Source: an uncultured Planctomycetaceae bacterium (lineage in GTDB: Bacteria; Planctomycetota; UBA1135; GCA-002686595). Taken from it: 64,000 nt of DNA. The stretch spans positions 37,461-101,460 of the forward strand of contig CAYMYN010000005.1 of NCBI GenBank assembly GCA_964394665.1. Reading direction: 5' to 3'. The notes under the pieces were generated by a model. That model ran no database searches and was not told where the DNA came from. It was given only the letters and a program-made list of their open reading frames with translations. Position numbers and translations under genes: made by a program. This document shows positions 4,050 through 58,106 of the stretch, in pieces; the stretch's first letter is position 1, and each line of letters begins with the position of its first letter.

Positions 4050-4065
4050 TCAATCAAACGATTGA
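4050..4065. promoter_or_regulatory. Candidate TetR operator: palindrome TCAATCaaacGATTGA (6-bp arms, 4-bp spacer) in an unusually AT-rich patch 34 bp upstream of the TetR start
   Basis: Inverted repeat read directly. It lies in the 348-bp divergent intergenic region between thrC and the TetR gene. Local low GC stands out against a ~72% GC background. Confidence 0.35.
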
Positions 4066-4098
4066 TTCTGGGTCGGTCGCCCCTACGCTTTCCGCCCC

Positions 4099-4836: not shown

Positions 4837-4884
4837 CCCCCCGAGGTTCCCGTCCTGCTCGCCGACCCGAACCCGAGAGCTCCC

Positions 4885-11084: not shown

Positions 11085-11251
11085 ACGCCCGCGCGGGGCC
11101 GCCGACGGATGGAGCAAGGGAGTCGGGAAAAAGCCAACCGCAACGGCTTCCGCGGCGTTGGCTAGGGTGAACCATCCCCGGGGGCGCTTTGCCCATGGGG
11201 TCCGTGCCCGTCCTCGGGCACCCACGCGGTCCCGATCCCGCCCGTCCTGCG

Positions 11252-20502: not shown

Positions 20503-20630
20503 CCACCCTGGGTGCCTGCGACGGCCCCCAGGGCCACGGGTTCGACGTGCCCCGGCGCCCAGAGCCCGGCGGACGCCCACGCGCGCCGGATCGGGAACGA
20601 TCGGGCGTGCGCGGTGTTGAATGGGGTGCC

Positions 20631-23600
20631 GTGCAGACACCCGGGGCATCGATCGAGGAGTTGCTGGGCCACGCCGACTTCGTGCGGCGGTTGGCGCGCG
20701 AGCTCGTCGGGGAGGAGACGGGGGCCGAGGATCTCGCGCAGGAGGTCTGGTTGGCGGCCCTGCGGCGGCCGCCGGGGGGAGGGGAACGGTTGCGTGGGTG
20801 GCTGGCGGTCACGGCGCGCAACCTGCTCGCCAACCGCCGGCGCGAGCAGGGTCGACGGGGCGCGCGGGAACGGGACGCGGCGCGCGAGGAGTCGGTGCCT
20901 TCGGCCGAGTCCGTGCTCGAGCGCGAGGAACTCCGCGCCCAGGTCGTGCGAGCCGTGCTCGCCCTCGATGCGCCCCTGCGCGAGGTCTTGCTGCTGCGCT
21001 ACTACGAAGGGCTCGCGCCGCGCGAGGTGGCGCGGCGGCTCGGGGTGCCGGCGGCGACGGTGCGCACGCGCCTGCACCGTGGGTTGCAGCGCTTGCGCGC
21101 CGGGTTGGACGAGCGGAACGGTGGGCGGAGCTGGGCGGTGTTGCTCGCGCCGTGGACGCGGGTGCCGTCTGGGGCGGCTTGGATCCTGGGAGGGATCGCC
21201 ATGAAGAAGATGCTCGCGGCCATCGCGCTGCTCGGGATCGGACTCGTCGCCTGGCGCCTGTCGGGCGGGGAGGCGGAGGTCGAGCCGCGGCCTCCCTCGT
21301 CCGTCGTGGGGCCGAGCGCGGAACGCGCACCGCGGACGGACGGGGAGCCGGCCCCCCAGGAGATCACGGGAGAGCGCGCCGGGGAGATCACTGAGGCCCG
21401 CACGTCGCTCGCCCAAGAGGGCCCGGGAGCGACGGTCGGTCGACGCGTGTTCCCCGCCGACCGTGGGCGCGGCGCGGTGTGGGGCGAGGTCGTGGACGCG
21501 CAGGACCGGCCGCTCGCCGGGGTGCGCGTACGCGGCGCTCCGCACCTTGGGAACCTGCCGCCGGGGCTCGTGATCGACGACGATCGGCGCGCGGTGGTCG
21601 AAGCGCGCAGCGGGATCGACGGCCGGTTCCGCCTGGAGGACCTCGAGGAGGGGCCGGTCCTCGTCGAGGCGCGCTTCGAGGACGGTGGGCGCGCCGCGCG
21701 CGTGGTCGTGCTGGCGCGCGACGGCGAGCAGGGTCCGGTTCGGCTCTCGCCGCCCCACCCCGAGGCCGCGCGCGGGCGCATGACCGTGCGCGTCGTGGAC
21801 GGCGCGGGCGAGGCCGTGGCAGGAGCCCGGGTCGAGGTGTTCGGCTGGTCGCGCCAAAACGTCGAGCCGGACGTGATCGGGACCGCGGACAGGGTGCCGC
21901 TGGCGCGCGGCGACACGGACGGGGAGGGCCGCTTCGGGGCCGAGCTCCCGGGGCTCGAGTCGGGCGTCGCCTTCGCCTCCGGGCCGGACGGGTCTTGCGG
22001 CAGGAGCCGCTTCACCGGCCTCCACGGCGAAGCCTCGGCCCTGGTCGTCGTGCTGGAACCGCCGGCGAGTTTGGTGGGCGAGCTCGTCGGAGCGCGCGCC
22101 GAGGACCTCGTCGGCGCGACGCTCGCGCTGCACGCGCTGGTGGACCTCAACGCCTACTTCTCCTATGCGGGACGGCGCTTCGAGATCGAGCTCAGCGGGC
22201 CGCGGTTCGAGTTCCACGGGCTCCCCGCGGGCACGTTCGGCATCACCCTACGCGCACCGGAGAGTCTGCGCCTGGTCGTCGGTCGCACGCGGGCCGGCGA
22301 GTTCGAGTTCGAGAACTCGGTGGCGATGCCCGAGGTCGTGCTCGTGCCCGGCGAGACGGCCGCGATCGAGCTGCCGGTGGCGCTCGGCGCGCGCCTGGTC
22401 GGCCGCGTGCGGGCCGCGGGCCGGCCGGTGCCCGGCGCGCGGGTCCGCGCTGTGATCGCGCCCCGCACGAGCTTCCACCCGGCCGGGTTCGTGCTCCACG
22501 GCGTCCACGTCTGGCGCCTGGACAGCGCCTACGAGAACGGCCCGCACAACCCGCTCTCGCACGTCACGGGCACGAGCGATGCGCAGGGACGCTACGAACT
22601 CGCCGGACTGCAACCGGGGAGGTATCGCCTCGAAGTCGTGGCGGACGGCCTCTCGCTGGATCGGCGCATGGACCTCGAGCTGAGCGCCGGTGCTTCGCTC
22701 CAGCTCGAACACGACCTGGTCGAGGCCGGCGTGTTGCAGGTCGCGGCCCTCGGTCTCGGGTACCTGGGTCTGATCCCGCAGGGGAGCTCGGCGCCGGAGA
22801 TCCTCGCCATCGTCCGCGACGACTTCGCGACGATCCCGGGATTGCGGCCCGGCCTGTGGAGCGTGGCGCGCTTCCACTCGAACGAGAGTGTCGCTCCGGT
22901 GATCCTGGGCGAGGCGTGGATCGAGGCCGGGCGCACGACCTGGCTCGACCTGCGCGAGAGCAGCGTGCGCGCCCACATCCGCGGCATCGTGCTGGACGGG
23001 GACATGCCCGTCCCGAACGCGGGCGTCCGGATCGGGGCCACCACGGCGCGCACGGACGACGCGGGGTCGTTCCATCTCCAGCTCGGGCACCCACCGCGTT
23101 TCGGGACGGGTTTTGGCGCCAGCATCGAGATTCGCCAGGGCGGCACCGAGTACACCTTCGTGCCCGACGCGCAGGGGCCGGTCGAGCGATTGGACCTGAT
23201 GCTGGATCTGGGGCCCTACCGGGTGCCGATCGAACTCGTCGACGCGACCGGGAGTCGATTGGAAGGTCGAATCGAGTTCCAGCTCGAGGCGGCCGAGCCG
23301 CGCGGGAGCGAGCCCCGTTCGCTGCGCGGCAGCCTGCTCGCGGGTGCCTCGGAGCCCACGTTCGTCGGTCCGCTCCCGGCGGGGACGCTCGTCGGGCGCG
23401 CGGTGCTGGCGGACGGCCTCGTCCTGCCCTTCGAGGCGAGCGTGCCCCGCGATCGACTGGTGCACCTGCAACGCCCGGCGACGGGCACCCTGGAGGTCCA
23501 GGTCCAGCGCGCGGGTGTCCCCGTGGGCGGTGCGCGGGTCTCGGCCTGGGTCTGGCGCGGAGAGGGTGAACCGCCCGACGATGCGTCGGAGTTCGTTGCG

Positions 23601-23771
23601 ACCAGCGATTCCGCCCACGGTCGCACGGACTCCGACGGTCGCCTGCACCTCGTGCTGCGCTCCGGCGCGATCCTGGTCTCGGCCCACCACGGTTTCCTCG
23701 CACCGGCCACGAGCTCCCGCGTGTCGCTCGGCGTCGATGGGCTGGAGCAGATCGTGCTCGAGCTCGAGTGA
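20631..23771 (+). CDS. ECF sigma factor fused to a TM segment and ~800-aa extracytoplasmic carboxypeptidase-regulatory-like repeat region (single-chain sigma/anti-sigma-like protein)
   Basis: Sigma-70 region 2 (DLAQEVWLAALRRP) and region 4 (LLLRYYEGLAPREVARRLGVPAATVRTRLHRGLQRL). Then, with no stop, MKKMLAAIALLGIGLVAWRL (TM) and repeats such as GVRVRGAPH / GRYELAGLQPGRYRLEV. Probable GTG start at 20631 (alt. 20607). The N-terminus aligns with the paralog at 33491-36544. Confidence 0.7.
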   Translation: MQTPGASIEELLGHADFVRRLARELVGEETGAEDLAQEVWLAALRRPPGGGERLRGWLAVTARNLLANRRREQGRRGARERDAAREESVPSAESVLEREELRAQVVRAVLALDAPLREVLLLRYYEGLAPREVARRLGVPAATVRTRLHRGLQRLRAGLDERNGGRSWAVLLAPWTRVPSGAAWILGGIAMKKMLAAIALLGIGLVAWRLSGGEAEVEPRPPSSVVGPSAERAPRTDGEPAPQEITGERAGEITEARTSLAQEGPGATVGRRVFPADRGRGAVWGEVVDAQDRPLAGVRVRGAPHLGNLPPGLVIDDDRRAVVEARSGIDGRFRLEDLEEGPVLVEARFEDGGRAARVVVLARDGEQGPVRLSPPHPEAARGRMTVRVVDGAGEAVAGARVEVFGWSRQNVEPDVIGTADRVPLARGDTDGEGRFGAELPGLESGVAFASGPDGSCGRSRFTGLHGEASALVVVLEPPASLVGELVGARAEDLVGATLALHALVDLNAYFSYAGRRFEIELSGPRFEFHGLPAGTFGITLRAPESLRLVVGRTRAGEFEFENSVAMPEVVLVPGETAAIELPVALGARLVGRVRAAGRPVPGARVRAVIAPRTSFHPAGFVLHGVHVWRLDSAYENGPHNPLSHVTGTSDAQGRYELAGLQPGRYRLEVVADGLSLDRRMDLELSAGASLQLEHDLVEAGVLQVAALGLGYLGLIPQGSSAPEILAIVRDDFATIPGLRPGLWSVARFHSNESVAPVILGEAWIEAGRTTWLDLRESSVRAHIRGIVLDGDMPVPNAGVRIGATTARTDDAGSFHLQLGHPPRFGTGFGASIEIRQGGTEYTFVPDAQGPVERLDLMLDLGPYRVPIELVDATGSRLEGRIEFQLEAAEPRGSEPRSLRGSLLAGASEPTFVGPLPAGTLVGRAVLADGLVLPFEASVPRDRLVHLQRPATGTLEVQVQRAGVPVGGARVSAWVWRGEGEPPDDASEFVATSDSAHGRTDSDGRLHLVLRSGAILVSAHHGFLAPATSSRVSLGVDGLEQIVLELE

Positions 23772-26610: not shown

Positions 26611-26639
26611 GGCCCCGGGAGCGGCGTCGGACCGCCGCC

Positions 26640-27248: not shown

Positions 27249-27773
27249 ATGAACACCACCTGCAAACCCTTCGCGCCCCTGATCCCGGCCTACCTCGATG
27301 GCGAGCTGAGCGACGCCCAGGCCGGGCCCCTGCGGCGCCACCTGCTCGAGTGCCCGGCCTGTCGGCGCGAGGTCGCGGGTGAGAAGGCGCTCAAGCGCTG
27401 GTTCGTGGCCGAGCCGGTCCCGGCGGTGCCGGTCGGATTCGCCGACCGCGTCGCGCGCCGGGCCTTCGCGGGCGACCCGGGCCTCGAAGCCAGCGCGCCG
27501 AGGAGCGCCGACGAGGGACGGATCCTGCCCTTCGTGCTCACGCTGACCGCCGCGGCGGCGGCCTTGCTGCTCATCGTCGCCGGCTCGATCCACGGCCTGA
27601 TCGTGCCCGCGGGCGGGACCCTGGGCGCCGAGGACGACGTGCCGATGAAGCTGGAGCAGGTCCTGGGCGAGCTCGAGCGCCTGGAGCGCGCCGAAGCCTC
27701 CGGCGCGGGCGTGAAGGACGCGGCCGAGGAACGCTCCGAGCCGACCCGACCCCGCGGGACCCCCGGCCGGTGA
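27249..27773 (+). CDS. Zinc-finger (ZAS-type) transmembrane anti-sigma factor
   Basis: HLLECPAC (H-x3-C-x2-C) motif, central TM (ILPFVLTLTAAAAALLLIVAG). Immediately downstream of the ECF sigma gene. Confidence 0.7.
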   Translation: MNTTCKPFAPLIPAYLDGELSDAQAGPLRRHLLECPACRREVAGEKALKRWFVAEPVPAVPVGFADRVARRAFAGDPGLEASAPRSADEGRILPFVLTLTAAAAALLLIVAGSIHGLIVPAGGTLGAEDDVPMKLEQVLGELERLERAEASGAGVKDAAEERSEPTRPRGTPGR

Positions 27774-32833: not shown

Positions 32834-33106
32834 GCAGCCCGGAGCCACGGAGATGCTCCGGCTCCCTGGCCGGCGCCGTGACGCGGCTGAGACGGTTTCT
32901 CAGGCCGACCCCGCGCGCCCCGGTGGGATCCGCGCCGCCGCGGCTTCCCGGAGGCGGGCACGGGCTTGCGCCCCGCCCGCCGCGCCGTAAAGGGGATCGC
33001 ACTCCCCAGGTCGGGGATGCGTCCGCCCTTCCCGTTCACTACCCTGTCGCGCCTGGGTAGCGAGTTCCCGCGCCCTCCCATCACGAAACCTTCTGGAGTC
33101 CCACGG

Positions 33107-33385
33107 ATGAAGAAACTCCTCCTGGCCGCCGTCCTGGCCCTGGGCGTCTCGAGCACGAGCTGCCTCGGCCCCGACCACATGTACAACAAGGTCAAGAACT
33201 GGAACGCCGAGCTCTCCGACGTCGATGCCGTCAACGAGATCGTGTTCCTGGGCCTGCACATCATCCCGGTCTACGGGATCTCGCTCTGGATCGACATCCT
33301 GATCCTCAACACGATCAACTACTGGAGCGGCGAGAACCCCGTCAGCGCCCCGGGTCCCTTCCCCGGCTTCACCCGCGCCGACTGA
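33107..33385 (+). CDS. Small lipoprotein
   Basis: GGAG ribosome-binding site. MKKLLLAAVLALGVSSTSC lipobox. Tyr/Asn/Trp-rich ~70-aa mature region. Confidence 0.5.
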   Translation: MKKLLLAAVLALGVSSTSCLGPDHMYNKVKNWNAELSDVDAVNEIVFLGLHIIPVYGISLWIDILILNTINYWSGENPVSAPGPFPGFTRAD

Positions 33386-33405
33386 GCTCGACTGCGATTC
33401 GGTCC

Positions 33406-33445
33406 ACACGGCCCCGCGGGCGCACCAGCGTCCGCGGGGCCGTGT
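33406..33445. terminator. Bidirectional intrinsic-terminator-like hairpin between convergent genes (14-bp perfect stem ACACGGCCCCGCGG / CCGCGGGGCCGTGT, 12-nt loop)
   Basis: Inverted repeat read directly from sequence. Lies in the 105-bp gap between the lipoprotein gene (+) and the ECF fusion gene (-). A weak T-run follows. Confidence 0.5.
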
Positions 33446-33490
33446 CGTTCGTGCGCGCCTGCGCATCGCAGCGCGCCGCCGAGCGGCGGA

Positions 33491-36400
33491 TCAGGGCAGC
33501 CTCGCGCGCAGGAGCCCGCCCTCGGGGAGCTCGAGCCGCTCGAGGCTGGGCCAGGCGCGCGGATCCTCGCCCGCGAGCGCCGCCCGCTCCCCCGGCGCCG
33601 GCGGCCGCACGACGCGCAACGAGCCGGCGGGAACCGGGTCGGGCGCCGCGCGGCCCTCGCCGTCGGGAAGCAGCGGGACCAGCGCGAAGCAGGTCCCGGA
33701 TCCCTCCCAGACCACGAACGGCACGCGACCGGGCTCCACGGCTGGGACGTTGGTGAGCTCGAGCCTGCCGACGGGGAGGCGCTGGCGCCACTCGAGCGCG
33801 CCGCCATCGGCCTCGATCTCGTCGAGCAGGCGCAGGCCGCGCGGGCAGGTGATGTCCAGGAGGTAGGTGCCCGGGACCTCGAGCTCGAAGGCGAAGCGGC
33901 CATCGGCGTCCAGGCGCGTCTCCTGGAAGGTGGCGGGCCCGGCGACTGCCAGCGGCACCAGCTCGACGTGCCAACCCTCGCGCTCGACGCCCTCGGCCTC
34001 GAGGTGGCCCGAGAGCCGGCCCGCGCGCCGCTCGCCGGCCAGGTCGAAGCGCGTCACGGCGCCCTCGAAGACCTCGCAGTTCCAGGGGAGCTCGGCGTGC
34101 GGCGGGCGCGAGCCGTCCACGCTGAGGTCGTTCCCGCCCCCGGGCGACCGGTCGTCGATGGGACACACCAGCCAGCGCCCCGGGGTCAGGTTCGCCAGCC
34201 CATAGCGGCCGTCCGGGCCCGCGCGGGCGGTGCGCAACTGTCCGTCGCCGCGCGAGGCCGCCACCACCCGCCCGACCGCGGGCCGACCGTCCGCGTGCTC
34301 CACGCGGCCCTCGATCGAGCCCCCCGCGCCGAGCTCGAGCTCGAGCCCCGAGAGACCGACGCCGGGCTCGAGCTCGAAGGGGCCGAGCTCCGCCGGCGCG
34401 CGGCCCGCGACCTGCGCCCGCACGACGTAGCGTCCGCCGGCGCGCAGCGTGAGCTCGAAGCGCCCGTCCGCGTCCGTGCGGGCGCGGACCTCGGGGTCGG
34501 GCTCGATCCAGATCGGGAAGCCGCCCCGCGTCGCCCGCGTCGTGAGGAGCGCATGGAGGCCGACCTCGACGTCCGCCGCGGGCGCACCGGCCTCGCTCAC
34601 ACGGCCGCGCACGCCGGGCAGCGGGTTCAAGGTGCAGTCCAGCACCTGCGCGTCGACGAGCTGTCCCGGGTCGAACGGGCCGAGCTCGCGCTGGTCGAAG
34701 CCCGGGGCGACCACGAGCAGCGTGAAGGGCCGCGTGGGCAGGCGCAGCGGACCTGGGACGAGCCGCTCGACCGAAGCCCCGGCGTCCTCGACGCGCAGCT
34801 CCCCCGTCCAGTCCTCGATCGGAGAGCCGTCCGCCGCGAGCACCCGCAGGCGCGCGTGCCGGGGCGGCTCGAAGCGCAGCACGAGTCCGCGCGTCCCTCC
34901 GCGGACCCCGCGCCGCTCGACCTGGGCGAAGCGGTCGTGCGGATCGCGGGCCGTGAGGTCCCAGGTGCCGGTCCATTGCAGGCGCACGCGGAAGTTCCCC
35001 TGCGCGTCGGCCACGGCCAGGGAGCTCGAGCTGCGCCAGAGGGTCTTGCCGCGCACGAAGATCGGCGCATGGGGCACGGGTACGCCCTCGGGATCGACCA
35101 CGGAACCCACGATGCGGCGCTCGGCCTCGAGCTCGGTGACGACGATCCGCACGCCGCGGGTCCCATGGTTCGGGCGGATCTCGACTCCGTCGCGTCCCCC
35201 GCTCCACATCCTGTCGTCGGACTCGGCGCTCAGGGACACGTTGCCCGCCAGCAGGCCCTCCAGCCGGAAGCGACCGAGCTCGTCCGTGCGCGCCTCGCTC
35301 GCGCCGAGGGCGGTCGTCTCGCTCAGGCGCATCGACCCGCCGGGCAGCACGCGCTGCGCCCCCGCGACCCGCACGCGCACCCCGGCGACGGGCTCCCCCC
35401 GCCCGTCGACCACGACCCCCTCGGCCGCGCCCCCCGCCCGCAGCACCACGTCGCCCAGGTCGATGGGCTCGCCCGCCCGCGCGCTGACGCGCAGGGAATC
35501 GTTGGCGAAGCCCGCGCGGCGGAAGGACAGGGTGTGGTGCCCCGGACCGGGGAGCGGCCGCACGGCGAGCTCGGCGCGCCCGTCGGCGCCCGTGTGCGTG
35601 CCCTGCGCGATGCTCCCCGGCGAGACGTCGACGCGCGCACCCCCGATGGGGGCCCCTTGCCCGTCGACCAGGCGCAGCCGCAGGCGGGCCAGGGGCTCGG
35701 CCGCGGATCCGCCGGCCTCCCCAGCGGGTTCCGGCTCGCGCGCGACGAGCGCCGTGCGGAGCGAGCCCTGCGCCGGATCGTCGGCCGCGTCGACGGCAGC
35801 GGAACCCGACGCGGCGGGCAGGGGCAGGAAGGCCAGGTCCTGCGCCGGGGCGTCGGCGCGCTCGCCCCCGCCCAGGAGGCGCACGCCCAGCAGCACGAGG
35901 CACAACGAACCGGCCAGGGCCGACGTCAGCACGAGGGTCTTCATCGCGAGGGCTCCGAGGATGGGGATGGGAAGACCTCCCGCGCCGGCGAGTTGGGCCC
36001 GCGGGCCGAGGAGCGGCGCCAGGGCCGCGCACCAGCCCCCACGGCCCCCGCCCTTGCGGCGCTCCAGGTGTGCGCGCAGCTCGGCCAGGGCGCTGTGCAG
36101 CCGCCAGCGCACGGTGCCCGCCGGGACGCCGCTGCGGCGCGCGATCTCGGCGCCGGTGAGGCCCTCGAAGTAGCGCAACAGCAGCGTCTCGCGCAGGGGC
36201 TCGTCGAGCGCCAGGACGGCCTCGATCAGCAGCCCCTGCGATTCGGCCCGCGCCGCCAGCTCGGCGGCCGAGGGCAGGGCCTCGTCGCGCGCCGCCGCGG
36301 CTTCGCGGGCCTCGACGCGCCGCCGGCGCCGGGCCCGCTGGCGCGCCGCGCTGCCGAGCACGCGCCCGAGCCAGGGCCGCGGGTCGCCCCCCGCGCGCGG

Positions 36401-36544
36401 AGGGCGGCGCAGGGCCGCCAGCCAGGTCTCCTGCAGCACCTCGTCCGCCTCGCCCTCGCCGACCAGGCGCCGGGCCAGGTCCCGGGCCCACGCGGAGTGG
36501 GCCAGCAGGGCTTCGATGGGGACGGGCGGGAGGGCGTCGCTCAT
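33491..36544 (-). CDS. ECF sigma factor fused to a TM segment and ~800-aa extracytoplasmic carboxypeptidase-regulatory-like repeat region (paralog of 20631-23771)
   Basis: N-terminal sigma regions 2 and 4 (VLQETWLAALRRPP...LLLRYFEGLTGAEIARRSGVPAGTVRWRLHSALAELR). Then, in-frame, MKTLVLTSALAGSLCLVLLGVRLL (TM) and repeats (GVRVRVAGAQ..., GRFELTLRAGGRYVVRAQV). 1017 aa uninterrupted. Confidence 0.7.
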   Translation of the reverse strand: MSDALPPVPIEALLAHSAWARDLARRLVGEGEADEVLQETWLAALRRPPRAGGDPRPWLGRVLGSAARQRARRRRRVEAREAAAARDEALPSAAELAARAESQGLLIEAVLALDEPLRETLLLRYFEGLTGAEIARRSGVPAGTVRWRLHSALAELRAHLERRKGGGRGGWCAALAPLLGPRAQLAGAGGLPIPILGALAMKTLVLTSALAGSLCLVLLGVRLLGGGERADAPAQDLAFLPLPAASGSAAVDAADDPAQGSLRTALVAREPEPAGEAGGSAAEPLARLRLRLVDGQGAPIGGARVDVSPGSIAQGTHTGADGRAELAVRPLPGPGHHTLSFRRAGFANDSLRVSARAGEPIDLGDVVLRAGGAAEGVVVDGRGEPVAGVRVRVAGAQRVLPGGSMRLSETTALGASEARTDELGRFRLEGLLAGNVSLSAESDDRMWSGGRDGVEIRPNHGTRGVRIVVTELEAERRIVGSVVDPEGVPVPHAPIFVRGKTLWRSSSSLAVADAQGNFRVRLQWTGTWDLTARDPHDRFAQVERRGVRGGTRGLVLRFEPPRHARLRVLAADGSPIEDWTGELRVEDAGASVERLVPGPLRLPTRPFTLLVVAPGFDQRELGPFDPGQLVDAQVLDCTLNPLPGVRGRVSEAGAPAADVEVGLHALLTTRATRGGFPIWIEPDPEVRARTDADGRFELTLRAGGRYVVRAQVAGRAPAELGPFELEPGVGLSGLELELGAGGSIEGRVEHADGRPAVGRVVAASRGDGQLRTARAGPDGRYGLANLTPGRWLVCPIDDRSPGGGNDLSVDGSRPPHAELPWNCEVFEGAVTRFDLAGERRAGRLSGHLEAEGVEREGWHVELVPLAVAGPATFQETRLDADGRFAFELEVPGTYLLDITCPRGLRLLDEIEADGGALEWRQRLPVGRLELTNVPAVEPGRVPFVVWEGSGTCFALVPLLPDGEGRAAPDPVPAGSLRVVRPPAPGERAALAGEDPRAWPSLERLELPEGGLLRARLP

Positions 36545-36704
36545 GGGTCTTCGACCCGTTCCATGCCGCGGGAGCCCGAAGCGTTGGCGTTTCCTCTCAC
36601 TTTCCGCCCCCCGCGGTCGGGCCCTGTTCCGGCCGCCCGGGGAACGGGCGCTCCGCCGACGGCCGCCGGACCCGATCCTACCCCGGGTGCCCCGGGCGCG
36701 GGGC

Positions 36705-37442
36705 CTACTCGAGGCGTGCGCCCTTGGCGGTGTAGAAGGCGAGCAGGTCCTCCCGGGCGGCGCGCGTGAACTTGCGCCAGACGCCGCCGGACCAGTCGCG
36801 GCCCGCGAGGCCTCGCTCGTCGTAGTGCTGGGCGGCTACGCGGTCGAAGGCGTCGATCTCGGCCAGCAGGGCGTCGTCGTCGAGGTAGCGCTCGCGCATC
36901 CACAGCGCGGCGAGCGGCAAGCGCGGGCGCCGAGCGGTCGGGATGGCGGGGTCGGGTGCGCCGGCGCACAGGCCGAAGAGCGGCCACACGCCCGCGGGCA
37001 ACTCGAGCAGGGCGTCGACCTCGATCAGGCGGTTGCGCAGGGCGCCGATGTAGCAGGTGCCGTAGCCCAGTGCCTCGAGGGCCAGGGTCAGATTCTGCGC
37101 GAAGAGACACGCGTCGACGACGGCCAGGAGGAAGGTCTCGAAGTTCGAGACGTAGCTCGCGCCGGCGCGCTCGGCCAGCAGGCGGTGACGGCGCGTGTCG
37201 CCGCAGACCACGAAGAACGCGCCGGCGGTCTCGACCTGGGTCTGGTCGGCGCACAGGTGCGCCAATCGCGAGCGCACGGCGGGCTCGCTGATCTGGATCA
37301 GGGAGTAGGCGTGGATCCAGCTCGACGTGGCTGCCTGGCGGGCGGCCGTGATCGCGTCGCGGAGCTGCTCTTCGGGGACCGGCTCGGGAAGGAAGGAGCG
37401 CACCGAGCGGTGGGCGGCCATGAGCTCCAACAGGGGGTGCAT
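36705..37442 (-). CDS. Oxygen-insensitive NAD(P)H nitroreductase (NfsA-like)
   Basis: N-terminus HRSVRSF, nitroreductase fold motifs. 245 aa. Confidence 0.75.
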   Translation of the reverse strand: MHPLLELMAAHRSVRSFLPEPVPEEQLRDAITAARQAATSSWIHAYSLIQISEPAVRSRLAHLCADQTQVETAGAFFVVCGDTRRHRLLAERAGASYVSNFETFLLAVVDACLFAQNLTLALEALGYGTCYIGALRNRLIEVDALLELPAGVWPLFGLCAGAPDPAIPTARRPRLPLAALWMRERYLDDDALLAEIDAFDRVAAQHYDERGLAGRDWSGGVWRKFTRAAREDLLAFYTAKGARLE

Positions 37443-37534
37443 GGGTACAGGATAGGCGCCGCGAGCGGCTGGAGCTCCCCGCTGGCGCGACCTGCGAGGC
37501 CCTCGGGACCCGGAGGCGAGGTAGCATCGGGGAG

Positions 37535-40504
37535 ATGGTGGTGCCGCCCGATCCCGCCGGACCCGAAGCGCAGACGCGCTGGGCCCGCGTGCGAGCGCTG
37601 GTCGAGGCTGCGCTCGACGTGCCGGCCACCGAGCAGCGGGCCATGCTCGCCGGACTCGAGCGAGATCCGGAGCTGGTCGAGGAGGCGCTCGGGTTGCTCG
37701 GGGCGGGCGAGGGCCCCGATCCGCCGCCGATGCCGGCGGTCGCGGGGATGTGGGACGGGCCGCGATCGGAGGAGGACGAGGAAGCGCCGGCGCGCCTGGG
37801 TCCCTATCGCGTGCTCCAGCGCATCGGCGCGGGCGGGATGGGCACCGTGCACCTGGCGCTGCGCGACGATGGGGAGTTCGCCAAGCGCGTGGCGGTCAAG
37901 ATCGTCAAGCGCGGCATGGACACCGAGGAGGTGCTGCGGCGTTTCGAGCAAGAGCGTCAAGTGCTCGCCTCCCTCGACCACCCGGGCATCGCGCGCGTGC
38001 TCGACGGCGGTCGGTGCCCCGACGGGCGTCCGTACCTGGTGATGGAGCTGGTCGAGGGACTGCCCATCGATCAGTGGTGCGACCACGAACGCCTGGGCGT
38101 GCGCGAGCGCATCGAGCTGTTCATCCAGGTCTGCGACGCCGTGGCCGACGCCCATCGCAGCCTGGTGGTCCACCGCGACATCAAGCCCTCCAACGTGCTC
38201 GTGACGCGCGATGGTCGGCCCAAGCTGCTCGACTTCGGCATCGCCAAGGTGCTCGACGCTCGCCAGGGCTTCGCGACGATCGACTGGACGATTTCGCCAC
38301 TCAAGCTCCTGACTCCCGCTTACGCCAGCCCCGAGCAGGTGCGCGGGGACCCGGTGACCACCGCCAGCGACGTGTACTCGCTGGGTGTCGTGCTCTACCT
38401 GCTCCTGACGGGCCGCACGCCGTTGCGCTTCGAGACCGGTTCGCCGGCCGAGATCGAGCGCGTCGTGTGCCGGGTCGAGCCCGAACGGCCGAGCACGAGC
38501 CTGATCACGACCGCGCGCCGCGTCGGCGTGGCTCCGGAGGCGCGCGATGCGGCGACGGGCGACCAGACGCGCGAGCTGGCGACGCTCCGCTCCACGACCC
38601 CCAAGTCGCTGCGCCGCGCGCTGAGCGGGGACCTCGACACGATCGTCCTGGAAGCGCTGCGCAAGGAGCCCCGACGGCGCTATGCCTCGGCCGCGGAGCT
38701 CGCCGCCGACCTGCGTCGTCACCTGCGCGGGCTGCCGGTGCTGGCGCGGCCCGACAGCCTCGCGTACCGCAGCTCGCGTTTCGTGCGGCGCAATCGCCTG
38801 GCGGTCGCCGCCGCCGCGCTGGTGCTCGGCTCGCTCGTGGGCGGCCTGGCGTTGGCGCGGACGCAGTACGCGCGCGCCGAGCGGGCGCGCTTGGCCCTCG
38901 CCGAGCAGCTCGAGATCGACCGGGCGCGGGCGCTCGAGCTGGAGCGCCTGGCGGAGGACCTCGGGGAACAACGCGCCCTGGCCGTGGACGCGCGCTCGGA
39001 GGCCGAGCGCCGACTGGCGGAGGTCGAGCGGCTCAACGAGGAACTCGAGCATCAAAGGGGCCTCGCGCTCCAGCGCCTGGCGGACGTGCGCAGCTTCGCC
39101 ACGGACCTGGCTTTCCGCGTCCACGGAGAGCTGGTCCCCATCGAGAACACCGAGAAGGCGCGCGCGCTGGTCGTCGGCCTGGGACTGGGCTTCCTCGACC
39201 GTCTGTCGCGCGACGTGGGCGACGACCCCTCGTTCCAACGCCTGTTGGTCGGTTCGCACCTGCGCATGGTGGAGGTGCAGCTCCAGGAGCCCGGGCCCCA
39301 GGACGAGCGCCAGCGCGCGGCGCTCGTCAGCGCGGAGCGCGCGGTGGCGCTCGGGGAGGCGCTCCACGCGACCGACTCGGCATCGATCCCCAACCGGTTC
39401 GCGCTCGCCTCGGCGTGCTTCCATCAGGGGCGTCTGTTGTCCTGGCTCGGCCGACGTGCCGAAGCCCGCGAAGCCCTCGAGCGGGCGCGGGAGCTGGGCG
39501 AAGCCGACGGGGGAGCGCTCCAGACGCACAACGGGCTCGCGATCTACCTCGGATCGGCCCTCGGCGAGCTGGCCGCGCTCCTGGCGGACTCGGGCGACGT
39601 GAGCGGAGCGCTCGAGCGTGTCGACGAGGCCATCCGTCAGATGGAGGCCCTGGCCGAGCGCATGCCCAGCACCGCCGAGACCCTCGCGGGGCTCGTGCGC
39701 CAGCGCGCCCAACTGCTCGCTGCCCGTGGCGAGCTCGAACACAGCGTTGCGGAGCTCGAGCGCGCGGCCGAGCTGCTCGCCGAGCTCCTGCGCTCCGATC
39801 CGACGCACCACATTCGCCGCCAGAACCTGCGCGCGATGAACGAGGAGCTGGCCGCGCTGTTGCCGCGGGTCGGGCGCGATGGGGACGCGTTGGAGCTCGT
39901 CGAGAGTCTGCTCGACTCGGCCGAGCAACGGCTCGCCACCGAGGGCCGAGGCCGCGGCACGCTGGTGGACCAGTTCACGGCCCTGCGGCTGCGGGCGGAC
40001 CTGCTCGGGCGTGCGCGTCGCTGGGACGAGGCCCACGGCGCCGCACGGGTCCTCCTGGCGGTGGCGCGCGAGCTACGCGACCTCGATCCGAGCGGGTTCG
40101 GGGCCCGCGGCGACCTCGGGCTGACCCTCGCGCGCACGGCGGAGGCCGCGCTGGCCGTGGGCGCGCTCGAGGATGCCTCCCACGCGATCCACGAGGCGCA
40201 GCGTCTGTTCGAGGGCCTTCGGCGCGAGGAGTCCGAGTCACCGCGCGTCCGCCAGGGGCTGCTGGTGATCCACGCGCTGCGGGCCGAGGTGGCCGAGACG
40301 TTGGCCGGTGCCGCCGACGGTCCAGCGCGCCGCGACCAGTGGCGGAACGCGCTGGCGGCCTGGAACGAAGCCGAGGACTTGATGCGCTTCCACGCGCCGG
40401 TCGATCGTTGGGGCGCGCCCGATCCCTCCTTCGCGCGCCGCGTCGCCGAGGGCCGGCAGCGCTGCGCCGCGGCCCTCTCGGACTCCGAGGCCAAGGAGCG
40501 TTGA
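37535..40504 (+). CDS. Ser/Thr protein kinase with an N-terminal ECF-sigma-associated domain and a C-terminal TM plus TPR-like helical region
   Basis: Hanks kinase motifs (GAGGMGTVHLA, VAVK, HRDIKPSNVL, DFG, SPE). N-terminal RWARVRALVEAALDVP...ERDPELVEEALGLL. TM (LAVAAAALVLGSLVGGLALA) then a long helical C-terminus. 989 aa. Confidence 0.85.
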   Translation: MVVPPDPAGPEAQTRWARVRALVEAALDVPATEQRAMLAGLERDPELVEEALGLLGAGEGPDPPPMPAVAGMWDGPRSEEDEEAPARLGPYRVLQRIGAGGMGTVHLALRDDGEFAKRVAVKIVKRGMDTEEVLRRFEQERQVLASLDHPGIARVLDGGRCPDGRPYLVMELVEGLPIDQWCDHERLGVRERIELFIQVCDAVADAHRSLVVHRDIKPSNVLVTRDGRPKLLDFGIAKVLDARQGFATIDWTISPLKLLTPAYASPEQVRGDPVTTASDVYSLGVVLYLLLTGRTPLRFETGSPAEIERVVCRVEPERPSTSLITTARRVGVAPEARDAATGDQTRELATLRSTTPKSLRRALSGDLDTIVLEALRKEPRRRYASAAELAADLRRHLRGLPVLARPDSLAYRSSRFVRRNRLAVAAAALVLGSLVGGLALARTQYARAERARLALAEQLEIDRARALELERLAEDLGEQRALAVDARSEAERRLAEVERLNEELEHQRGLALQRLADVRSFATDLAFRVHGELVPIENTEKARALVVGLGLGFLDRLSRDVGDDPSFQRLLVGSHLRMVEVQLQEPGPQDERQRAALVSAERAVALGEALHATDSASIPNRFALASACFHQGRLLSWLGRRAEAREALERARELGEADGGALQTHNGLAIYLGSALGELAALLADSGDVSGALERVDEAIRQMEALAERMPSTAETLAGLVRQRAQLLAARGELEHSVAELERAAELLAELLRSDPTHHIRRQNLRAMNEELAALLPRVGRDGDALELVESLLDSAEQRLATEGRGRGTLVDQFTALRLRADLLGRARRWDEAHGAARVLLAVARELRDLDPSGFGARGDLGLTLARTAEAALAVGALEDASHAIHEAQRLFEGLRREESESPRVRQGLLVIHALRAEVAETLAGAADGPARRDQWRNALAAWNEAEDLMRFHAPVDRWGAPDPSFARRVAEGRQRCAAALSDSEAKER

Positions 40505-41393: not shown

Positions 41394-41621
41394 GGGCCGA
41401 TTGTCGCATCCGCTGGCGGGGATGCGAAGCCCAGCGGCGTCGCCGAGCTCCAACGGCCTCCCGCGCCCCCGCGGGCCGGGCCACGTCGGTGTTCCGGAGA
41501 ACTTTCGCCCGCTGCGTGATGGGCAGCGCGGCCCGATCTCGCCGACCCCTGGCGGAGCGTGGGTTCCAAGGCACGGCCCGCTCCCGACCGAGACGATCCC
41601 GTGCGACGAGGAGATGACGAC

Positions 41622-43847
41622 ATGATGTGGAAGAAGACGGCTACGACCCTGTTCCTGGGCGGCCTGGCGTTCGCCGGCACCGCCCGCGATCCCCAGAACC
41701 CGTTCCCCGCGCCGAGCAACGATCCGGCCGCCGACGCGCGTTGGTCCACCTTCTGGTGGGCGGAGTTCGACGGCGACGGCGCCCCCGACGTGCTGGTCCT
41801 GCACCCCAACGCTCCCCTGCGCCTCTACCGCGGAACCGGCCGCGGCGAGCTCGCCGAGGTGACCCAGACCGCGGGCCTGGCGGGCGTGCTCGGCGCGCGG
41901 CAGGCGCTGTGGTTCGACTACGACGGCGATGGGCGCACCGATCTGTTCCTGACCGTCCCGGGCGGGCGCAGTCGCCTGCTGCGCAACGTCGAGGGCCAGA
42001 GCTTCGAGGACGTCGGCGCGACCAGCGGACTGGCGCTCGAGTCGAGGGTGCTGCGCGCCGAGGTCCTCGACTACGACGGCGATGGTGCGCCCGACCTGCT
42101 GTTCGTCGGGCCCGACCGCGAACGCCTGTTCCGCAACCTGGGCGCCGGTTCCTTCGAGGAACTCGTCCTGGAGCTCCCCGAGCGCGCGCCGATCGTGCAC
42201 ATGGACGTGCTGGCTCCCGCTCGCCGCGCGCCGCTGCCGCAAGACGAGCAACCCGAGCTCGACGCGCGCGTGGCGCCGCGCCCCGGCAACGCGGCCTCCG
42301 CGCCGGCGGGTTCCTCGCAGCTCTTCGGTCCCACGACGGGGCCGACCGTGACCGCAACGCCCCTCGGTCCCCAGGTGCCGGCCTCCGCGCAGCTCGTGTG
42401 CGCGGGCTCGGTCGAGGACTTCGTCAACCCCGGCACCTGCATGAACGCCTCCAGCGTGCCGACGCTGGGCATGCTGTTCCCGATCAGTCCGGAGTGGTTC
42501 GTGGACCCCTCCGGGCGCGTGGGCCTGGGCACGACCTCGCCCAGCGAGCGCTTGCACGTGGCCGGACGGATCCTGGCGTCGGACCAGATCCGAACCACGC
42601 TCCCGACCGGCACCGCGCCCTTCCAGGTCGCGTCCACCACGTTGGTGACCAACCTGAACGCCGATCTGCTCGACGGCCTCCATGCGAACGCCTTCCGCCT
42701 CACGGCGAACCCGATCGGGACCGCCGACCTGGCCAACGCCGCGGTGACCGCGGCCAAGCTGGCGAGCGGCGCGGTGAACAGCGCCGCGATCCTCGACGGA
42801 TCGATCGTGAACGCGGACGTCTCGGCCTCGGCGGCCGTCGCGGGGACCAAGATCGTGCCGAGCTTCGGCGCGCAGAACGTCGTCACGACCGGCCGCGGAG
42901 GCTTCGGGACGACCGGTCCGAACTCGACCCTGCACGTCAACGCCCCCGCGGGCGACGACGCCTTCCGGGTGCAGAGCGCGGGAGCGACGAAGTTGCTCGT
43001 GGCCCAAGGCGGAGGCGTCTCGATCGGCACGAACCTCCTGACGCCGCCGCCGAACGGGCTCTACGTCCACGGCAACCTCGGCGTCGGCAACACCGCGCCG
43101 ACCTTCAAGCTCGACGTCACCGGAGACGTGAACGCGAGCGGCACCATTCGCCAGGGCGGCTCGGTCGTGGTCGGGGCGACGGGCCTGTTCTTCGGCAAGG
43201 ACACCGGTTGGCCGAACCTCGCCTACAACCTCGGCACGTCGGGGCTGGGCATGGGCAGCCCGTCGGCCAACAACCTGGCCTTCCAGACCCTCGGGCTCGA
43301 GCGCCTGCGGATCACGAACTCGGGACGCGTCGGCATCGGCGTGTCGACTCCCGGGTTCCGTCTGGACCTGCCCAACATCGCCAGCGTCGACGGTCAGGGG
43401 CGCGCGAACGCCTGGACCACCTACTCCTCGCGGCGTTGGAAGGAGAACGTGCAGACGATCCCGGGCGCCCTCGAGCTCGTGCTGCGCCTGCGCGGCGTGA
43501 CCTTCGACTGGACCGCGGAGAGCGGTGGCGGCAAGGACGACGTCGGGTTCATCGCCGAGGAGGTCGGCGCCGTGGTGCCCCAGCTCGTCGCGTGGGAAGA
43601 GGACGGCGTGAATGCCAAGAGCCTCAAGTACGACCGCATCTCGGCCCTGACCGTCGAGGCCATCAAGAGCCAGCAGGTGCTGATCGAGGAGCTGCGGGGC
43701 GAGCTCGAGCTCGAGCGGGAGCGGCACCTGGCCGAGATGGCGCTCGCCGAAGGCCGCGTGGCCGAGCTCGAGCGCCAGGTGGCCGAGCAGGGCCAGCGCC
43801 TCGAGCGCGTGATCGCGGCCCTCGCGGCGGTGATCGAGGCGCGCTGA
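41622..43847 (+). CDS. Secreted FG-GAP/VCBS-repeat protein with a tail-fibre-like domain and a C-terminal peptidase-S74 intramolecular chaperone domain
   Basis: GAGGAG ribosome-binding site 8 nt upstream. MMWKKTATTLFLGGLAFAGTA signal peptide. DYDGDGRTDL / DYDGDGAPDL calcium-binding-like repeats. GLGTTSPSERLHVAGRI...ANAAVTAAKLASGAVNSAAILDGSIVNADV is a tail-fibre motif. C-terminal RRWKENVQTIPGALELVLRLRGVTFDW...DVGFIAEEVGAVVPQLV...KSLKYDRISALTVEAIKSQQ is S74/endosialidase-chaperone-like. Coiled-coil tail. Confidence 0.7.
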   Translation: MMWKKTATTLFLGGLAFAGTARDPQNPFPAPSNDPAADARWSTFWWAEFDGDGAPDVLVLHPNAPLRLYRGTGRGELAEVTQTAGLAGVLGARQALWFDYDGDGRTDLFLTVPGGRSRLLRNVEGQSFEDVGATSGLALESRVLRAEVLDYDGDGAPDLLFVGPDRERLFRNLGAGSFEELVLELPERAPIVHMDVLAPARRAPLPQDEQPELDARVAPRPGNAASAPAGSSQLFGPTTGPTVTATPLGPQVPASAQLVCAGSVEDFVNPGTCMNASSVPTLGMLFPISPEWFVDPSGRVGLGTTSPSERLHVAGRILASDQIRTTLPTGTAPFQVASTTLVTNLNADLLDGLHANAFRLTANPIGTADLANAAVTAAKLASGAVNSAAILDGSIVNADVSASAAVAGTKIVPSFGAQNVVTTGRGGFGTTGPNSTLHVNAPAGDDAFRVQSAGATKLLVAQGGGVSIGTNLLTPPPNGLYVHGNLGVGNTAPTFKLDVTGDVNASGTIRQGGSVVVGATGLFFGKDTGWPNLAYNLGTSGLGMGSPSANNLAFQTLGLERLRITNSGRVGIGVSTPGFRLDLPNIASVDGQGRANAWTTYSSRRWKENVQTIPGALELVLRLRGVTFDWTAESGGGKDDVGFIAEEVGAVVPQLVAWEEDGVNAKSLKYDRISALTVEAIKSQQVLIEELRGELELERERHLAEMALAEGRVAELERQVAEQGQRLERVIAALAAVIEAR

Positions 43848-50834: not shown

Positions 50835-50913
50835 CGAGTGCGGGGCGCGGGAGCCTGGGGGCGACCCTCGGCCAGGCTGATAGACTCTCCCCGCACTCGC
50901 GGGTGTCTTCGGA

Positions 50914-56468: not shown

Positions 56469-58106
56469 TCAGGGGGCGCCGGTCCGTAGCTCGACCGAGG
56501 TCAGCGCGCCGGAGCGCACCTCGAAGGTGCTCGTGCGGTCGTCCGGGCCGGGGGGACCCGGGCCGCCGGGGGAGGCGAAGGCGTGCCAGGTCCCGGCGGG
56601 GAGCGCGGGGATCCAGGCGGGGGAGCGCTCGAAGGACCAGGTCGTGTGCACGGGGAGCGCGCCGTGCTCGCGCAGGTAGAGCACGAAGGGGCCGTCGAGT
56701 TCTTGGCCGAGGGCGTCGAGCACGGCGAGCCGGAGCGCGCCCGCTCCCGCGGGCCAGGGAAGCTCGACGGTGTCGCGCGGGCCGCGCAGCTCCACGCGCA
56801 TGGGCTGCGTGCGGGGGAGGTTCGCCAGGCCCGGCCCGCCCAGGGCGATCTCGTAGCTCCCGGTCGGCACGCGGTGGGCCACGTCGCCCTCCGGTCCCAG
56901 GGCCCACAGGCGCAGGCCGTAGCGCCGGCCGTCGGCGCGCTCGAGGCCCAGCTCGACGGCGCGCGAGGGTTCGTCCAGGGGGCCTTCGATCGCGGGCGCG
57001 CCCACGGGGCGCACGACGAGCTCGGTCCACCCGCCGCCCTCGGGCGTCAGCGGGAGCTCGTTCACCACCAACGCGCCGCGCACCCGCGGCAGCGCCAGCC
57101 CGGTGGTGAGCGGGTGGTAGCCCGGGACGACGTAGCGCTGCATCATCGGCTTCAAGGCCTCGACGTCGGCGGCGGCGCAGAAGAGCAGCGCGTGCTCGTA
57201 GGGACCTTCGAGGGCTTGCGCGAGCGGGATGCCCGCCGCGAGGAAGTCCACCCGCCGTTGGGGCGCGAACTTGGCCGCGGGATCGAGGGCGAGGGGGGCG
57301 GTGGCGTCGCGCGGGGCGAGGTGCGCCGCGGTCCTGGGCGCGCCGCCCTCCTTGTCCAAGAGGCGTACGAAGCAGCCGAAGAGCGGCAGGACCTCGAGCT
57401 CGAGGTCGTCGCTCGGCGCTTCGATCGGGACGTACCGCAGGGTGAGCAGGCCGCTCGCCCCCGCGCTGACGTGATACGTCCGGCCGGCGACGAGGGAGCC
57501 GAGCTCGAAGTACCCATCGTCCTCGGTCCGCGCCAGGTGCAGGGCGGGATCCGCGTCGGCCGCGAAGGCTGCTTCGCTCGGTCGGGGCGTGTGGTGCGCG
57601 GCGTGCGCGACCACCCGGGCGCCGCGTCCCACGGGGCTGCCGTCGGCTCGGCGCACGATGCCGCGCAGGTACGCGCCCGGACCGAGATCGAACTCCAGGG
57701 TCGGGGGTGGGTCGTTCGGAATCAGGAACTCGGTCTGGGCGTGCGCGGGATGGCGCAGGGCGAGCCGGCGCCCCGCGAGCCCGCCCGCCGTGCCGCTCCA
57801 CTCGCCCGCGGCGTCCGTGCGACCGAGCTCCCGCGCCGACTCCGGCCCGCCCACGAGGATCCGACAGCCCTCCAGCGCGCCGCCCCCCGCGCCGCGCACG
57901 CGCAGCGTCACGCGCAGGGCGGGATCCGCGGGCCCGGGCTCCCGCGGCGCTCCGGCCGGAGCGCTCGGCCGCGCGCGCTCCCCGGCGAACCACCGACCGC
58001 CCACCGCGAGCAGGGCGAGCGCGAGCACCACGAGCGCGACCGGGGCCACCCAGCGCGCCGCGCCGCGGCGCGCCGAGCACTCTCTCACGAGCCTGAGTCC
58101 GATCAT
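56469..58106 (-). CDS. Membrane-anchored protein with carboxypeptidase-regulatory-like beta-sandwich repeats (paralog family of 18382-20502)
   Basis: N-terminal TM (WVAPVALVVLALALLAVGG), repeated TLRVRGAGGGALEGCRILVG / GYFELGSLVAGRTYHVSA-type modules. 12-nt gap after the radical-SAM gene. Confidence 0.6.
   Translation of the reverse strand: MIGLRLVRECSARRGAARWVAPVALVVLALALLAVGGRWFAGERARPSAPAGAPREPGPADPALRVTLRVRGAGGGALEGCRILVGGPESARELGRTDAAGEWSGTAGGLAGRRLALRHPAHAQTEFLIPNDPPPTLEFDLGPGAYLRGIVRRADGSPVGRGARVVAHAAHHTPRPSEAAFAADADPALHLARTEDDGYFELGSLVAGRTYHVSAGASGLLTLRYVPIEAPSDDLELEVLPLFGCFVRLLDKEGGAPRTAAHLAPRDATAPLALDPAAKFAPQRRVDFLAAGIPLAQALEGPYEHALLFCAAADVEALKPMMQRYVVPGYHPLTTGLALPRVRGALVVNELPLTPEGGGWTELVVRPVGAPAIEGPLDEPSRAVELGLERADGRRYGLRLWALGPEGDVAHRVPTGSYEIALGGPGLANLPRTQPMRVELRGPRDTVELPWPAGAGALRLAVLDALGQELDGPFVLYLREHGALPVHTTWSFERSPAWIPALPAGTWHAFASPGGPGPPGPDDRTSTFEVRSGALTSVELRTGAP

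Follow-up and report, generated by a model that had tools for sequence, protein, structure and literature searches.

A gene for a membrane-tethered ECF sigma factor with a candidate internal translation start in an uncultured planctomycete

Sigma factors of the extracytoplasmic function (ECF) type make up the third major class of bacterial signal transducers, and almost every mechanism known to control them uses an anti-sigma domain or a partner protein. How, then, might a sigma factor be controlled when it is wired straight to a transmembrane (TM) helix, and what does such a gene produce? The question is raised by gene A, found in a 64-kb stretch of DNA from an uncultured Planctomycetaceae bacterium (contig CAYMYN010000005.1, positions 37,461 to 101,460; hereafter the window). 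Gene A encodes, in a single frame, an ECF sigma factor, a TM helix and an array of beta-sandwich domains. We lean, with modest confidence, towards reading it as a self-contained, one-component transmembrane device, in which the sigma factor would be released by proteolysis and would activate its own gene, and which would also yield a second, sigma-less product. A preliminary description of this DNA had emphasized that a second fusion of this kind, gene B, lies in the same window. The interest of the locus rests rather on the minimal design of the tether and on a probable two-product gene. Positions of all features are collected in Table 1.

ECF sigma factors that carry regulatory extensions at the C-terminus form a known class of 19 groups (Casas-Pastor et al. 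2021, PMC7826278), and planctomycetal members with large and diverse C-terminal extensions have already been described (Pinto et al. 2020, PMC7671368). In the open-access literature, no description was found of an extension made of a TM helix and CarboxypepD_reg domains on a sigma factor, nor of the CCAACG promoter motif reported below, and a search of the same literature for membrane-tethered sigma factors returned nothing relevant. Such an extension is likewise not among the groups named in the main text of the 2021 classification.

Table 1. Positions of gene A, of its parts and of related features in the window (SD, Shine-Dalgarno)
Feature	Position	Strand	Basis
Gene A, ECF sigma + TM helix + beta-sandwich array, 1017 aa	33491..36544	-	
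Bipartite element CCAACGC-N14-GCATGG, ends 16 nt before ATG; candidate autoregulated ECF-type promoter	36561..36587	-	motif conservation
Sigma region 2, aa 10-84	36293..36517	-	PF04542, model helices, conserved DDVVQETW and RPWL..V.RN motifs
Sigma region 4, aa 93-163, helix-turn-helix with conserved PAGTVRWRL	36056..36268	-	PF08281, PF04545, alignment, model
Trp helix after sigma4, G-D-R-x-x-W-x-x-x-L-x-P-L	36005..36055	-	alignment, model
SD-like GGAG, formed by rare Gly197 codon GGA and G of next codon	35953..35956	-	codon counts, DNA reading
In-frame ATG (Met201), 8 nt after GGAG; candidate start of 817-aa isoform, sigma-less and signal-anchored (35944 down to 33491)	35942..35944	-	codon counts, alignment
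Single TM helix, ~aa 203-223	35876..35938	-	hydropathy; model helix 208-223
Extracytoplasmic linker, aa 224-285, low model confidence, conserved V-A-F-x-P-L strand	35690..35875	-	alignment, model
About 8 tandem transthyretin/prealbumin-like beta-sandwich domains, aa 286-1017	33494..35689	-	PF13620 x5, model, fold matches
Gene B, paralogous fusion, 1046 aa, GTG start	20631..23771	+	Pfam, BLASTP, TIGR02937, profile
B-type promoter-like element GGGAACGATC-N6-GCGCGGTGTTGAAT	20593..20622	+	both halves conserved in L088 ortholog; spacer and upstream sequence diverged
GGGAGGG (21188-21194) and in-frame ATG (21201-21203) before TM helix of B; candidate 856-aa sigma-less isoform	21188..21203	+	DNA reading
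F2, free-standing N-terminally anchored protein	56469..58106	-	A profile match (8e-14) to first ectodomain modules; sub-threshold PF13620
Hairpin, 18-bp stem, 4-nt loop, between convergent gene 32966-33385 (+) and gene A	33406..33445	.	folding

The G+C content of the window is 72.6%, at which long spurious reading frames are frequent, and the choice of frame was therefore checked by the G+C content of the codon positions. Gene A starts with ATG and runs for 1017 codons with zero internal stops; its third-position value (GC3) of 0.92 marks it as the true frame. Pfam assigned Sigma70_r2 to aa 15-76, Sigma70_r4_2 to aa 105-156, CarboxypepD_reg (PF13620) to five stretches (E 6e-44, 148.7 bits versus a gathering score of 32.3) and a DUF4198-like module to the C-terminus. 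In both A and B the sigma families found were PF04542 and PF08281/PF04545 only, that is, sigma2 and sigma4 with no regions 1 and 3, as in ECF (group 4) factors, and both proteins exceeded the 42.9 cutoff of the sigma70-ECF model TIGR02937 (55.8 bits for A, 80.2 bits for B). The closest structures in the PDB to the sigma part were the mycobacterial SigL, SigK, SigE and SigH (E ~1e-8).

An alignment of 70 N-termini showed a canonical ECF core followed by the Trp-helix motif, in which W171 is present in 78 of 81 family members and P177 in 66 of 81. Next comes the TM helix: by hydropathy, 59 of the 60 homologs listed, gene A among them, have one such helix at ~aa 200-230. The N-terminal flank of this helix has a net positive charge and the sigma factor must reach RNA polymerase, so that the protein is expected to lie with its N-terminus in the cytoplasm and its C-terminus outside.

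The preliminary description had spoken of fused sigma/anti-sigma proteins. The layout does agree with that of known sigma/anti-sigma fusions, as a TM helix follows sigma4 and an extracytoplasmic part ends the same polypeptide. The anti-sigma part of the label is nevertheless unsupported, because Pfam found no anti-sigma domain (zf-HC2, RskA or FecR) in A or B at E <= 0.1, and because about 40 residues, with one helix (168-179), separate the end of sigma4 (~aa 163) from the start of the TM helix (~aa 203). No FecR N-terminal, ZAS/zf-HC2 or RskA-like domain of at least three helices lies in this interval. Gene A thus encodes a directly tethered sigma factor, and the Trp helix is its sole extra cytoplasmic element.

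An AlphaFold2 model of the protein was built on the 81 family sequences (mean predicted local distance difference test score, pLDDT, 85.7). It contains the two sigma regions with the limits given in Table 1, then the Trp helix, a low-confidence stretch, the TM helix, and a linker, disordered but for one short strand, whose P241 is conserved in 75 of 81 members. About eight beta-sandwich domains follow from aa 286. Foldseek searches of the PDB with this ectodomain returned generic tandem prealbumin, CnaB and macroglobulin (MG) arrays only: the TIE protein, Gram-positive pilins, the MG domains of alpha2-macroglobulin, the transthyretin-like domain of teneurin, and NOMO. In the model, the ectodomain is therefore a rod of beta-sandwiches that gives no enzymatic clue. 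Within its sixth domain, an SRGDG motif (aa 764-768, ~34241-34255 on the minus strand; R765, G766, D767) is near-invariant in orthologs of the A type; judging from this conservation it could be a ligand- or metal-binding site.

How widespread is this design? A word-indexed search gave 180 relatives, nearly all 850-1450 aa long with matching Pfam content, labelled "sigma-70 family RNA polymerase sigma factor" in their sources and belonging to Planctomycetota, Kofleriaceae and metagenome-assembled genomes (MAGs) of other Myxococcota. With about 25 of them, at 28-62% identity, the alignment runs the whole length of A. A profile search of 1.84 billion cluster representatives then found at least 150 matching clusters at 50% identity, mostly from planctomycetal MAGs; relatives with the sigma/TM core occur in Myxococcota. 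Among the matches listed, scores ranged from 796 to 1300 bits, and all but P0198, a 6305-residue multi-repeat protein, matched in what is essentially a single unbroken stretch. Some nine-tenths of those listed span almost all of the profile (966-1118 aa); eleven proteins of lesser length (850-924 aa) cover its first 840-930 positions. A metagenome scan seeded on PAGTVRWR[LI] added 80 loci with a common sigma/Trp-helix/TM core and extensions of ~400 to 1260 aa, and a cultured bacterium, Saltatorellus ferox Poly30 (L012), also has a member. Since the A type is conserved in at least 150 clusters and the core recurs with many ectodomains, the fusion is ancient and under long-term selection, and is neither an assembly artefact nor a single-organism oddity. 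The same spread shows that the family expansion, which the preliminary description had attributed to the source organism, is not peculiar to it.

Several narrower ECF classes do not accommodate these proteins. Both A and B scored far below every cutoff of the NCBIfam ECF subfamilies (SigE-fam_strep, Sig-70_plancto1, Sig-70_gvs1 etc.), for example 59.6 versus 141.6 for TIGR02983 and 33.4 versus 183.8 for TIGR02984. Their PF07638 scores (14.4 and 20.8) are below the 21.1 cutoff, which sets them apart from the kinase-associated groups ECF43, 59-62 and 217. Gene A differs from ECF57 as well, as it has no WD40 match in Pfam and lacks the Cys pair of that group; the first 165 aa of A contain no Cys at all, as is the case for 65 of the 81 family members.

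We next consider what gene A produces. Just before the TM helix, the family shares a motif G-x-x-x-(M/V)-K, with conserved G197, M201 and K202. In the DNA, it corresponds to GGAG or GGAGG placed 8-9 nt before an in-frame ATG, which is the arrangement of a Shine-Dalgarno (SD) sequence and a start codon. Codon usage at these columns was analysed in a first set of 19 sequences with DNA and in an independent, de-replicated metagenome set. In the first set, the Gly column was GGA in 13 of 16 cases, versus 10.9% of all Gly codons (binomial p ~1e-10), and the next highest use of GGA among 47 conserved Gly columns was 5 of 17. In the metagenome set, GGA was found in 27 of 30 cases and GGC in none, although GGC makes up 59% and GGA 12% of Gly codons (p ~5e-22). 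The wobble base of the preceding codon was A in 15 of 37 cases, versus a background of 6.8%. The resulting consensus is aGGAg-N8-ATG/GTG, the start column itself being ATG in 15 and GTG in one of the 19 aligned sequences. An accident of alignment as the origin of the internal "MK" was ruled out by this codon analysis.

For comparison, 33% of annotated starts in the related loci have an SD-like motif before them, as do 10% of internal in-frame ATGs. At the juxtamembrane site such motifs are present in 51% of the members having ATG or GTG there, and in ~90% of those with the Gly motif. Downstream of the internal start, the sequence MK..K followed by ~20 hydrophobic residues is like an ordinary signal-anchor N-terminus. 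On this evidence from codons and spacing, functional internal initiation giving a sigma-less isoform is the most economical reading, and we consider it rather likely. The sigma-less form would probably be the more abundant one, because the upstream start of gene A has no SD and a minimal leader whereas a strong SD precedes the internal start; the short form may serve to buffer or modulate the one that carries the sigma factor. No report of an internal start in any sigma gene or sigma fusion was found in the open-access literature. Whether the downstream part is an independent gene, a possibility raised in the preliminary description, thus receives a divided answer: no stop codon separates it from the sigma part, so that the fusion protein must be made, and the conserved internal SD and start suggest that it is translated separately as well.

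The region upstream of gene A carries a second conserved signal. The motif CCAACG[CG] was first spotted by eye and then tested separately. It lies 35-50 nt before the start in 10 of the 10 A-type genes first examined, whose flanking sequences are otherwise unconserved and whose upstream genes differ; this heptamer has a background frequency of 0.1-0.4 per kb per strand. After a gap of 13-15 nt comes a second block, GCAYKG, giving the family pattern CCAAC(G/A)-N13-15-GCAYKG. The bipartite pattern has a single match in the window, directly upstream of A, where 0.08 was expected. In 334 kb of related loci, seven of ten matches were at the starts of fusion genes, and Markov shuffles gave 1-8 matches with no positional preference. 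When bipartite k-mers were enumerated blindly across 20 upstream regions, nothing rose above shuffles. Variants of the element occupy the equivalent position in L089, L091 and L092, and in metagenome loci L095, L101, L107 and others. In L090 the element fits once an over-long annotated start is corrected: the deposited start of P0014 is probably 22 codons too early (6001-6066), and both the family N-terminus and CCAACAC-N13-GCATTG fit an ATG at 6067, further downstream.

A -35 element containing AAC, with a spacing of ~17 nt, is a hallmark of ECF promoters, and ECF sigma factors usually autoregulate. For these two reasons, we infer from the sequences that the elements of A and B are the genes' own sigma-dependent promoters. 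The end of the -10-like block is 9-16 nt away from the ATG, so that the leader would be very short or missing. Within +/-8 kb, no second conserved target of the motif was seen, and a scan of 33200-37700 for consensus promoters and terminators gave no match, as expected at 72.6% G+C. A lone CCAACGG with no second half is present at 41450, near an FG-GAP gene (41520-43847, +).

The following scheme can be proposed. The tether, possibly together with the Trp helix, would keep the sigma factor from productive transcription. An event in the ectodomain would trigger juxtamembrane and then intramembrane cleavage and so free the sigma factor, as in IutY (ECF243) from Pseudomonas putida, the one sigma/anti-sigma fusion characterised by experiment, where cleavage by Prc and RseP does so (PMC8999054). 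The freed sigma factor would drive its own promoter, CCAACG-N14-GCATGG, and a further regulon, and the internal SD and ATG would yield, in the same frame, the sigma-less, signal-anchored isoform. Regulated proteolysis is the likeliest mechanism of release, as inferred by analogy. No conserved partner gene was found across 13 orthologous loci, whose neighbourhoods differ; this fits a self-contained system.

Several points weigh against this scheme. The putative release step is drawn from IutY, and genes for envelope proteases were found near single orthologs only (Peptidase_S41 in L085, Peptidase_S26 and HtrA-like genes in L003). The sigma factor could equally be active while tethered. Recognition of the promoter-like element by the sigma factor of gene A is deduced from sequence, and its -10 block, GCAYKG, is unusual and, by its closeness to the ATG, would leave almost no room for an mRNA leader. 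The internal SD and ATG are missing in L003, in L091 and in S. ferox, which has GGC. Finally, conservation of the Gly and the Met could partly serve the protein, so that the synonymous choice of GGA is the one protein-independent signal.

Activity of the sigma factor in its tethered state, in the manner of ToxR or CadC, is the most direct alternative to release: it would recruit the RNA polymerase core at the membrane, and a ligand or oligomerisation of the ectodomain would switch it on with no proteolysis. This would accord with the absence of any anti-sigma domain and of a conserved protease partner, and the sigma4-TM linker of ~40 residues, partly disordered, could give the necessary reach. 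However, no membrane-bound sigma factor has been shown to be active, the sole characterised fusion, IutY, needs cleavage (PMC8999054), and a holoenzyme fixed at the membrane must find promoters chromosome-wide, so that we hold this mode of action to be unlikely. A different objection concerns the second product. The GGAG and ATG might be a relic of the ribosome-binding site of an ancestral downstream gene, or serve a translational pause before the TM helix, no sigma-less isoform being made. That the motif encodes the conserved G197, M201 and K202, so that part of the signal lies at the protein level, speaks for such a single product, as does its absence from some members. But orthologs are just 28-62% identical, and at ~30-60% identity synonymous sites are saturated, so that a neutral relic would have decayed. 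The GGA codons and the preceding wobble A are, moreover, synonymous choices that run counter to a GC3 above 90%; a pause leaves the ATG or GTG at the canonical spacing of 8-9 nt unexplained; and the N-terminus that would result resembles that of a normal signal-anchored protein. A single product thus appears rather doubtful.

It is also conceivable that the fusion has no sensory role, a duplicated sigma2/sigma4 cassette having landed before the gene of an exported beta-sandwich protein whose function is unrelated. This is the exact route described for planctomycetal C-terminal extensions (Pinto et al. 2020, PMC7671368); A and B share the sigma factor and the TM helix while their ectodomains have diverged, and a retained internal start fits the capture of a downstream gene. 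Such a scenario explains the origin of the gene well, but not its end-to-end conservation: the A type keeps a near-constant length in its 150 or more clusters, and the sigma/Trp-helix/TM core recurs with many different ectodomains. As an account of the present gene we find it very improbable. Returning to the one-component device with release by proteolysis, a more elaborate and tentative version, which we would not expect to hold in full, joins the two products into a self-reporting circuit. The sigma-less bulk would be an envelope component, and the minority of sigma-bearing copies made from the weak upstream start would be sentinels. Cleavage of the sentinels by envelope proteases, upon damage or turnover of the ectodomain, would free the sigma factor, which would re-induce the gene through its CCAACG promoter. 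If this were true, the protein would set its own level with no anti-sigma factor or partner gene.

The paralog B, on the plus strand, has the domain order of A, and both fusions were found by Pfam in single frames, as the preliminary description had it. BLASTP aligned A and B at 38% identity over aa 6-398 (E 5e-40), which spans the sigma factor, the TM helix and the first modules; a TM helix after region 4 was recovered by hydropathy, and the beta-sandwich nature of the C-termini by the CarboxypepD_reg stretches and by the ~8 domains modelled in A. The similarity thus extends beyond the sigma domain, and the profile of A-type orthologs also matched later modules of B, out of register (7e-21 and 2e-9). 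A and B are therefore diverged paralogs within one superfamily, as had been proposed. B has an ortholog of its own, P0071 in locus L088, with 72% identity over the full length. Two free-standing relatives had been suggested as well. One of them, F2, is indeed related through its match to the A profile. The other, F1 (18334-20502, +), gave no BLAST or A-profile match and was rejected. A 2116-aa protein with no Pfam match (11189-17539, +) is encoded upstream of F1 and B; in L088, a 2096-aa protein (1599-7889) takes this place, immediately upstream of the B ortholog, and F1 is absent there.

Several copies per locus are typical of the family, as two fusion genes no more than 10 kb apart are also found in L001 and L085. 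In L085 (683-12504, one MAG), a free-standing 1136-aa CarboxypepD_reg protein is accompanied by two tandem sigma fusions with near-identical promoters. Directly downstream of the fusions lies a Peptidase_S41 gene (Prc/CtpA-type), which makes L085 the sole locus with an adjacent candidate site-1 protease.

Upstream of gene A, 36705-37442 (-) carries PF00881, in agreement with the nitroreductase originally noted there. A nitroreductase is near A orthologs in one other locus, L091, at 4.6 kb, and FG-GAP genes are near them in three loci; neither is consistent. A Ser/Thr kinase was also considered as a partner and rejected: it is adjacent in the window, in L001 and in L091, and present within ~8 kb in ~7 of 14 loci, which is the background at two kinases per 64 kb. 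The kinase of the window (37535-40504, +; 989 aa) has a long helical, tetratricopeptide repeat-like C-terminal part and is divergent from the nitroreductase-A pair. The FG-GAP repeat protein encoded at 41520-43847 (+) ends in a Peptidase_S74 domain, an intramolecular chaperone, and FG-GAP genes near A orthologs occur in L001, L087 and L090.

On the other side of gene A, the bidirectional hairpin previously noted is real, with 18-nt arms (33406-33423 and 33428-33445), and the 105-nt intergenic stretch containing it folds at -70 kcal/mol (z = -4.3). A terminator function is putative, as the hairpin has no U tract and was not reported by the terminator scan. No further copies were present in the window, so that a repeated element was rejected, and it is probably a bidirectional terminator lacking a U tract.

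Elsewhere in the window, two further ECF sigma factors are encoded, which makes four in total, of three regulatory designs. The gene at 26511-27233 (+; Sigma70_r2/r4_2) ends in a stop codon, beyond which lies a gene for an anti-sigma factor of the zf-HC2 (ZAS) type (27249-27773, +). The fourth, at 50884-51507 (+), is of the PF07638 type (E 6e-53), and immediately downstream of it a Ser/Thr kinase is fused to an FGE-sulfatase domain (51510-54131, +). A stop-free frame of 1807 codons (5661-11084, +) encodes an ACR_tran domain of the AcrB-type resistance-nodulation-division (RND) family (E 9e-187) and a C-terminal OEP domain; it is either an unusual fusion of an RND pump with an outer membrane factor or two genes. 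An HlyD-type adaptor gene (4837-6021) lies upstream of it. A gene for a CotH kinase-family protein (3-1646, -) is located at the edge of the window.

What does this design mean for the control of sigma factors? The family is large, with at least 150 clusters for the A type alone and many more having the common core and other ectodomains, and in it the sigma factor is wired straight to a TM helix. If the tether alone controls activity, this would be the simplest transmembrane sigma switch known, and an attractive part for synthetic biology. The conserved promoter-like motif offers a handle for regulon searches in Planctomycetota, where almost no ECF sigma factor has been studied experimentally.

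The closest comparison is with IutY, which like gene A combines in one polypeptide an N-terminal ECF sigma factor, one TM helix and a periplasmic C-terminal part. IutY, however, carries an anti-sigma domain of the FecR type and acts together with a TonB-dependent transducer, whereas gene A has neither an anti-sigma domain, nor FecR, nor a nearby transducer gene, and its ectodomain is made of eight transthyretin-like domains. In the actinobacterial groups ECF48, ECF52 and ECF53 (e.g. SCO4117), too, the sigma factor is followed by one TM helix or two and by an extracytoplasmic domain, and proteolytic release has been proposed for them, largely untested. They differ by having, ahead of the TM helix, an anti-sigma segment of the zinc-finger (ZAS-like) kind, by a Pro-rich or carbohydrate-binding ectodomain, and by their phylum. 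The planctomycetal ECF57 and ECF01-Gob (Pinto et al. 2020) share with A the phylum, the presence of several copies per genome, and long, diverse extensions presumably gained through duplication and insertion; ECF57 is described as having WD40-like repeats and two conserved Cys linking sigma2 and sigma4, where A has a TM helix and CarboxypepD_reg domains.

The canonical operon found in the same window, with its ECF sigma factor and single-pass anti-sigma factor, resembles gene A in that a cytoplasmic sigma factor is coupled to a membrane protein that has an extracytoplasmic part. It has a stop codon between the two genes and a zf-HC2 domain, and A and B lack both. The internal SD and ATG of gene A coincide in place with the expected start of the second gene in an operon of this kind. 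If this conserved start is used, gene A would be, within the literature found, the first known sigma gene also encoding a sigma-less isoform. Conserved internal starts giving two isoforms are known outside sigma factors, as for CheA-L and CheA-S, IF2 alpha and beta, and ClpB. In these genes, as would be the case in gene A, an in-frame SD and start codon lead to a full-length and an N-truncated product; gene A would be distinct from them in that its short form loses the entire sigma domain.

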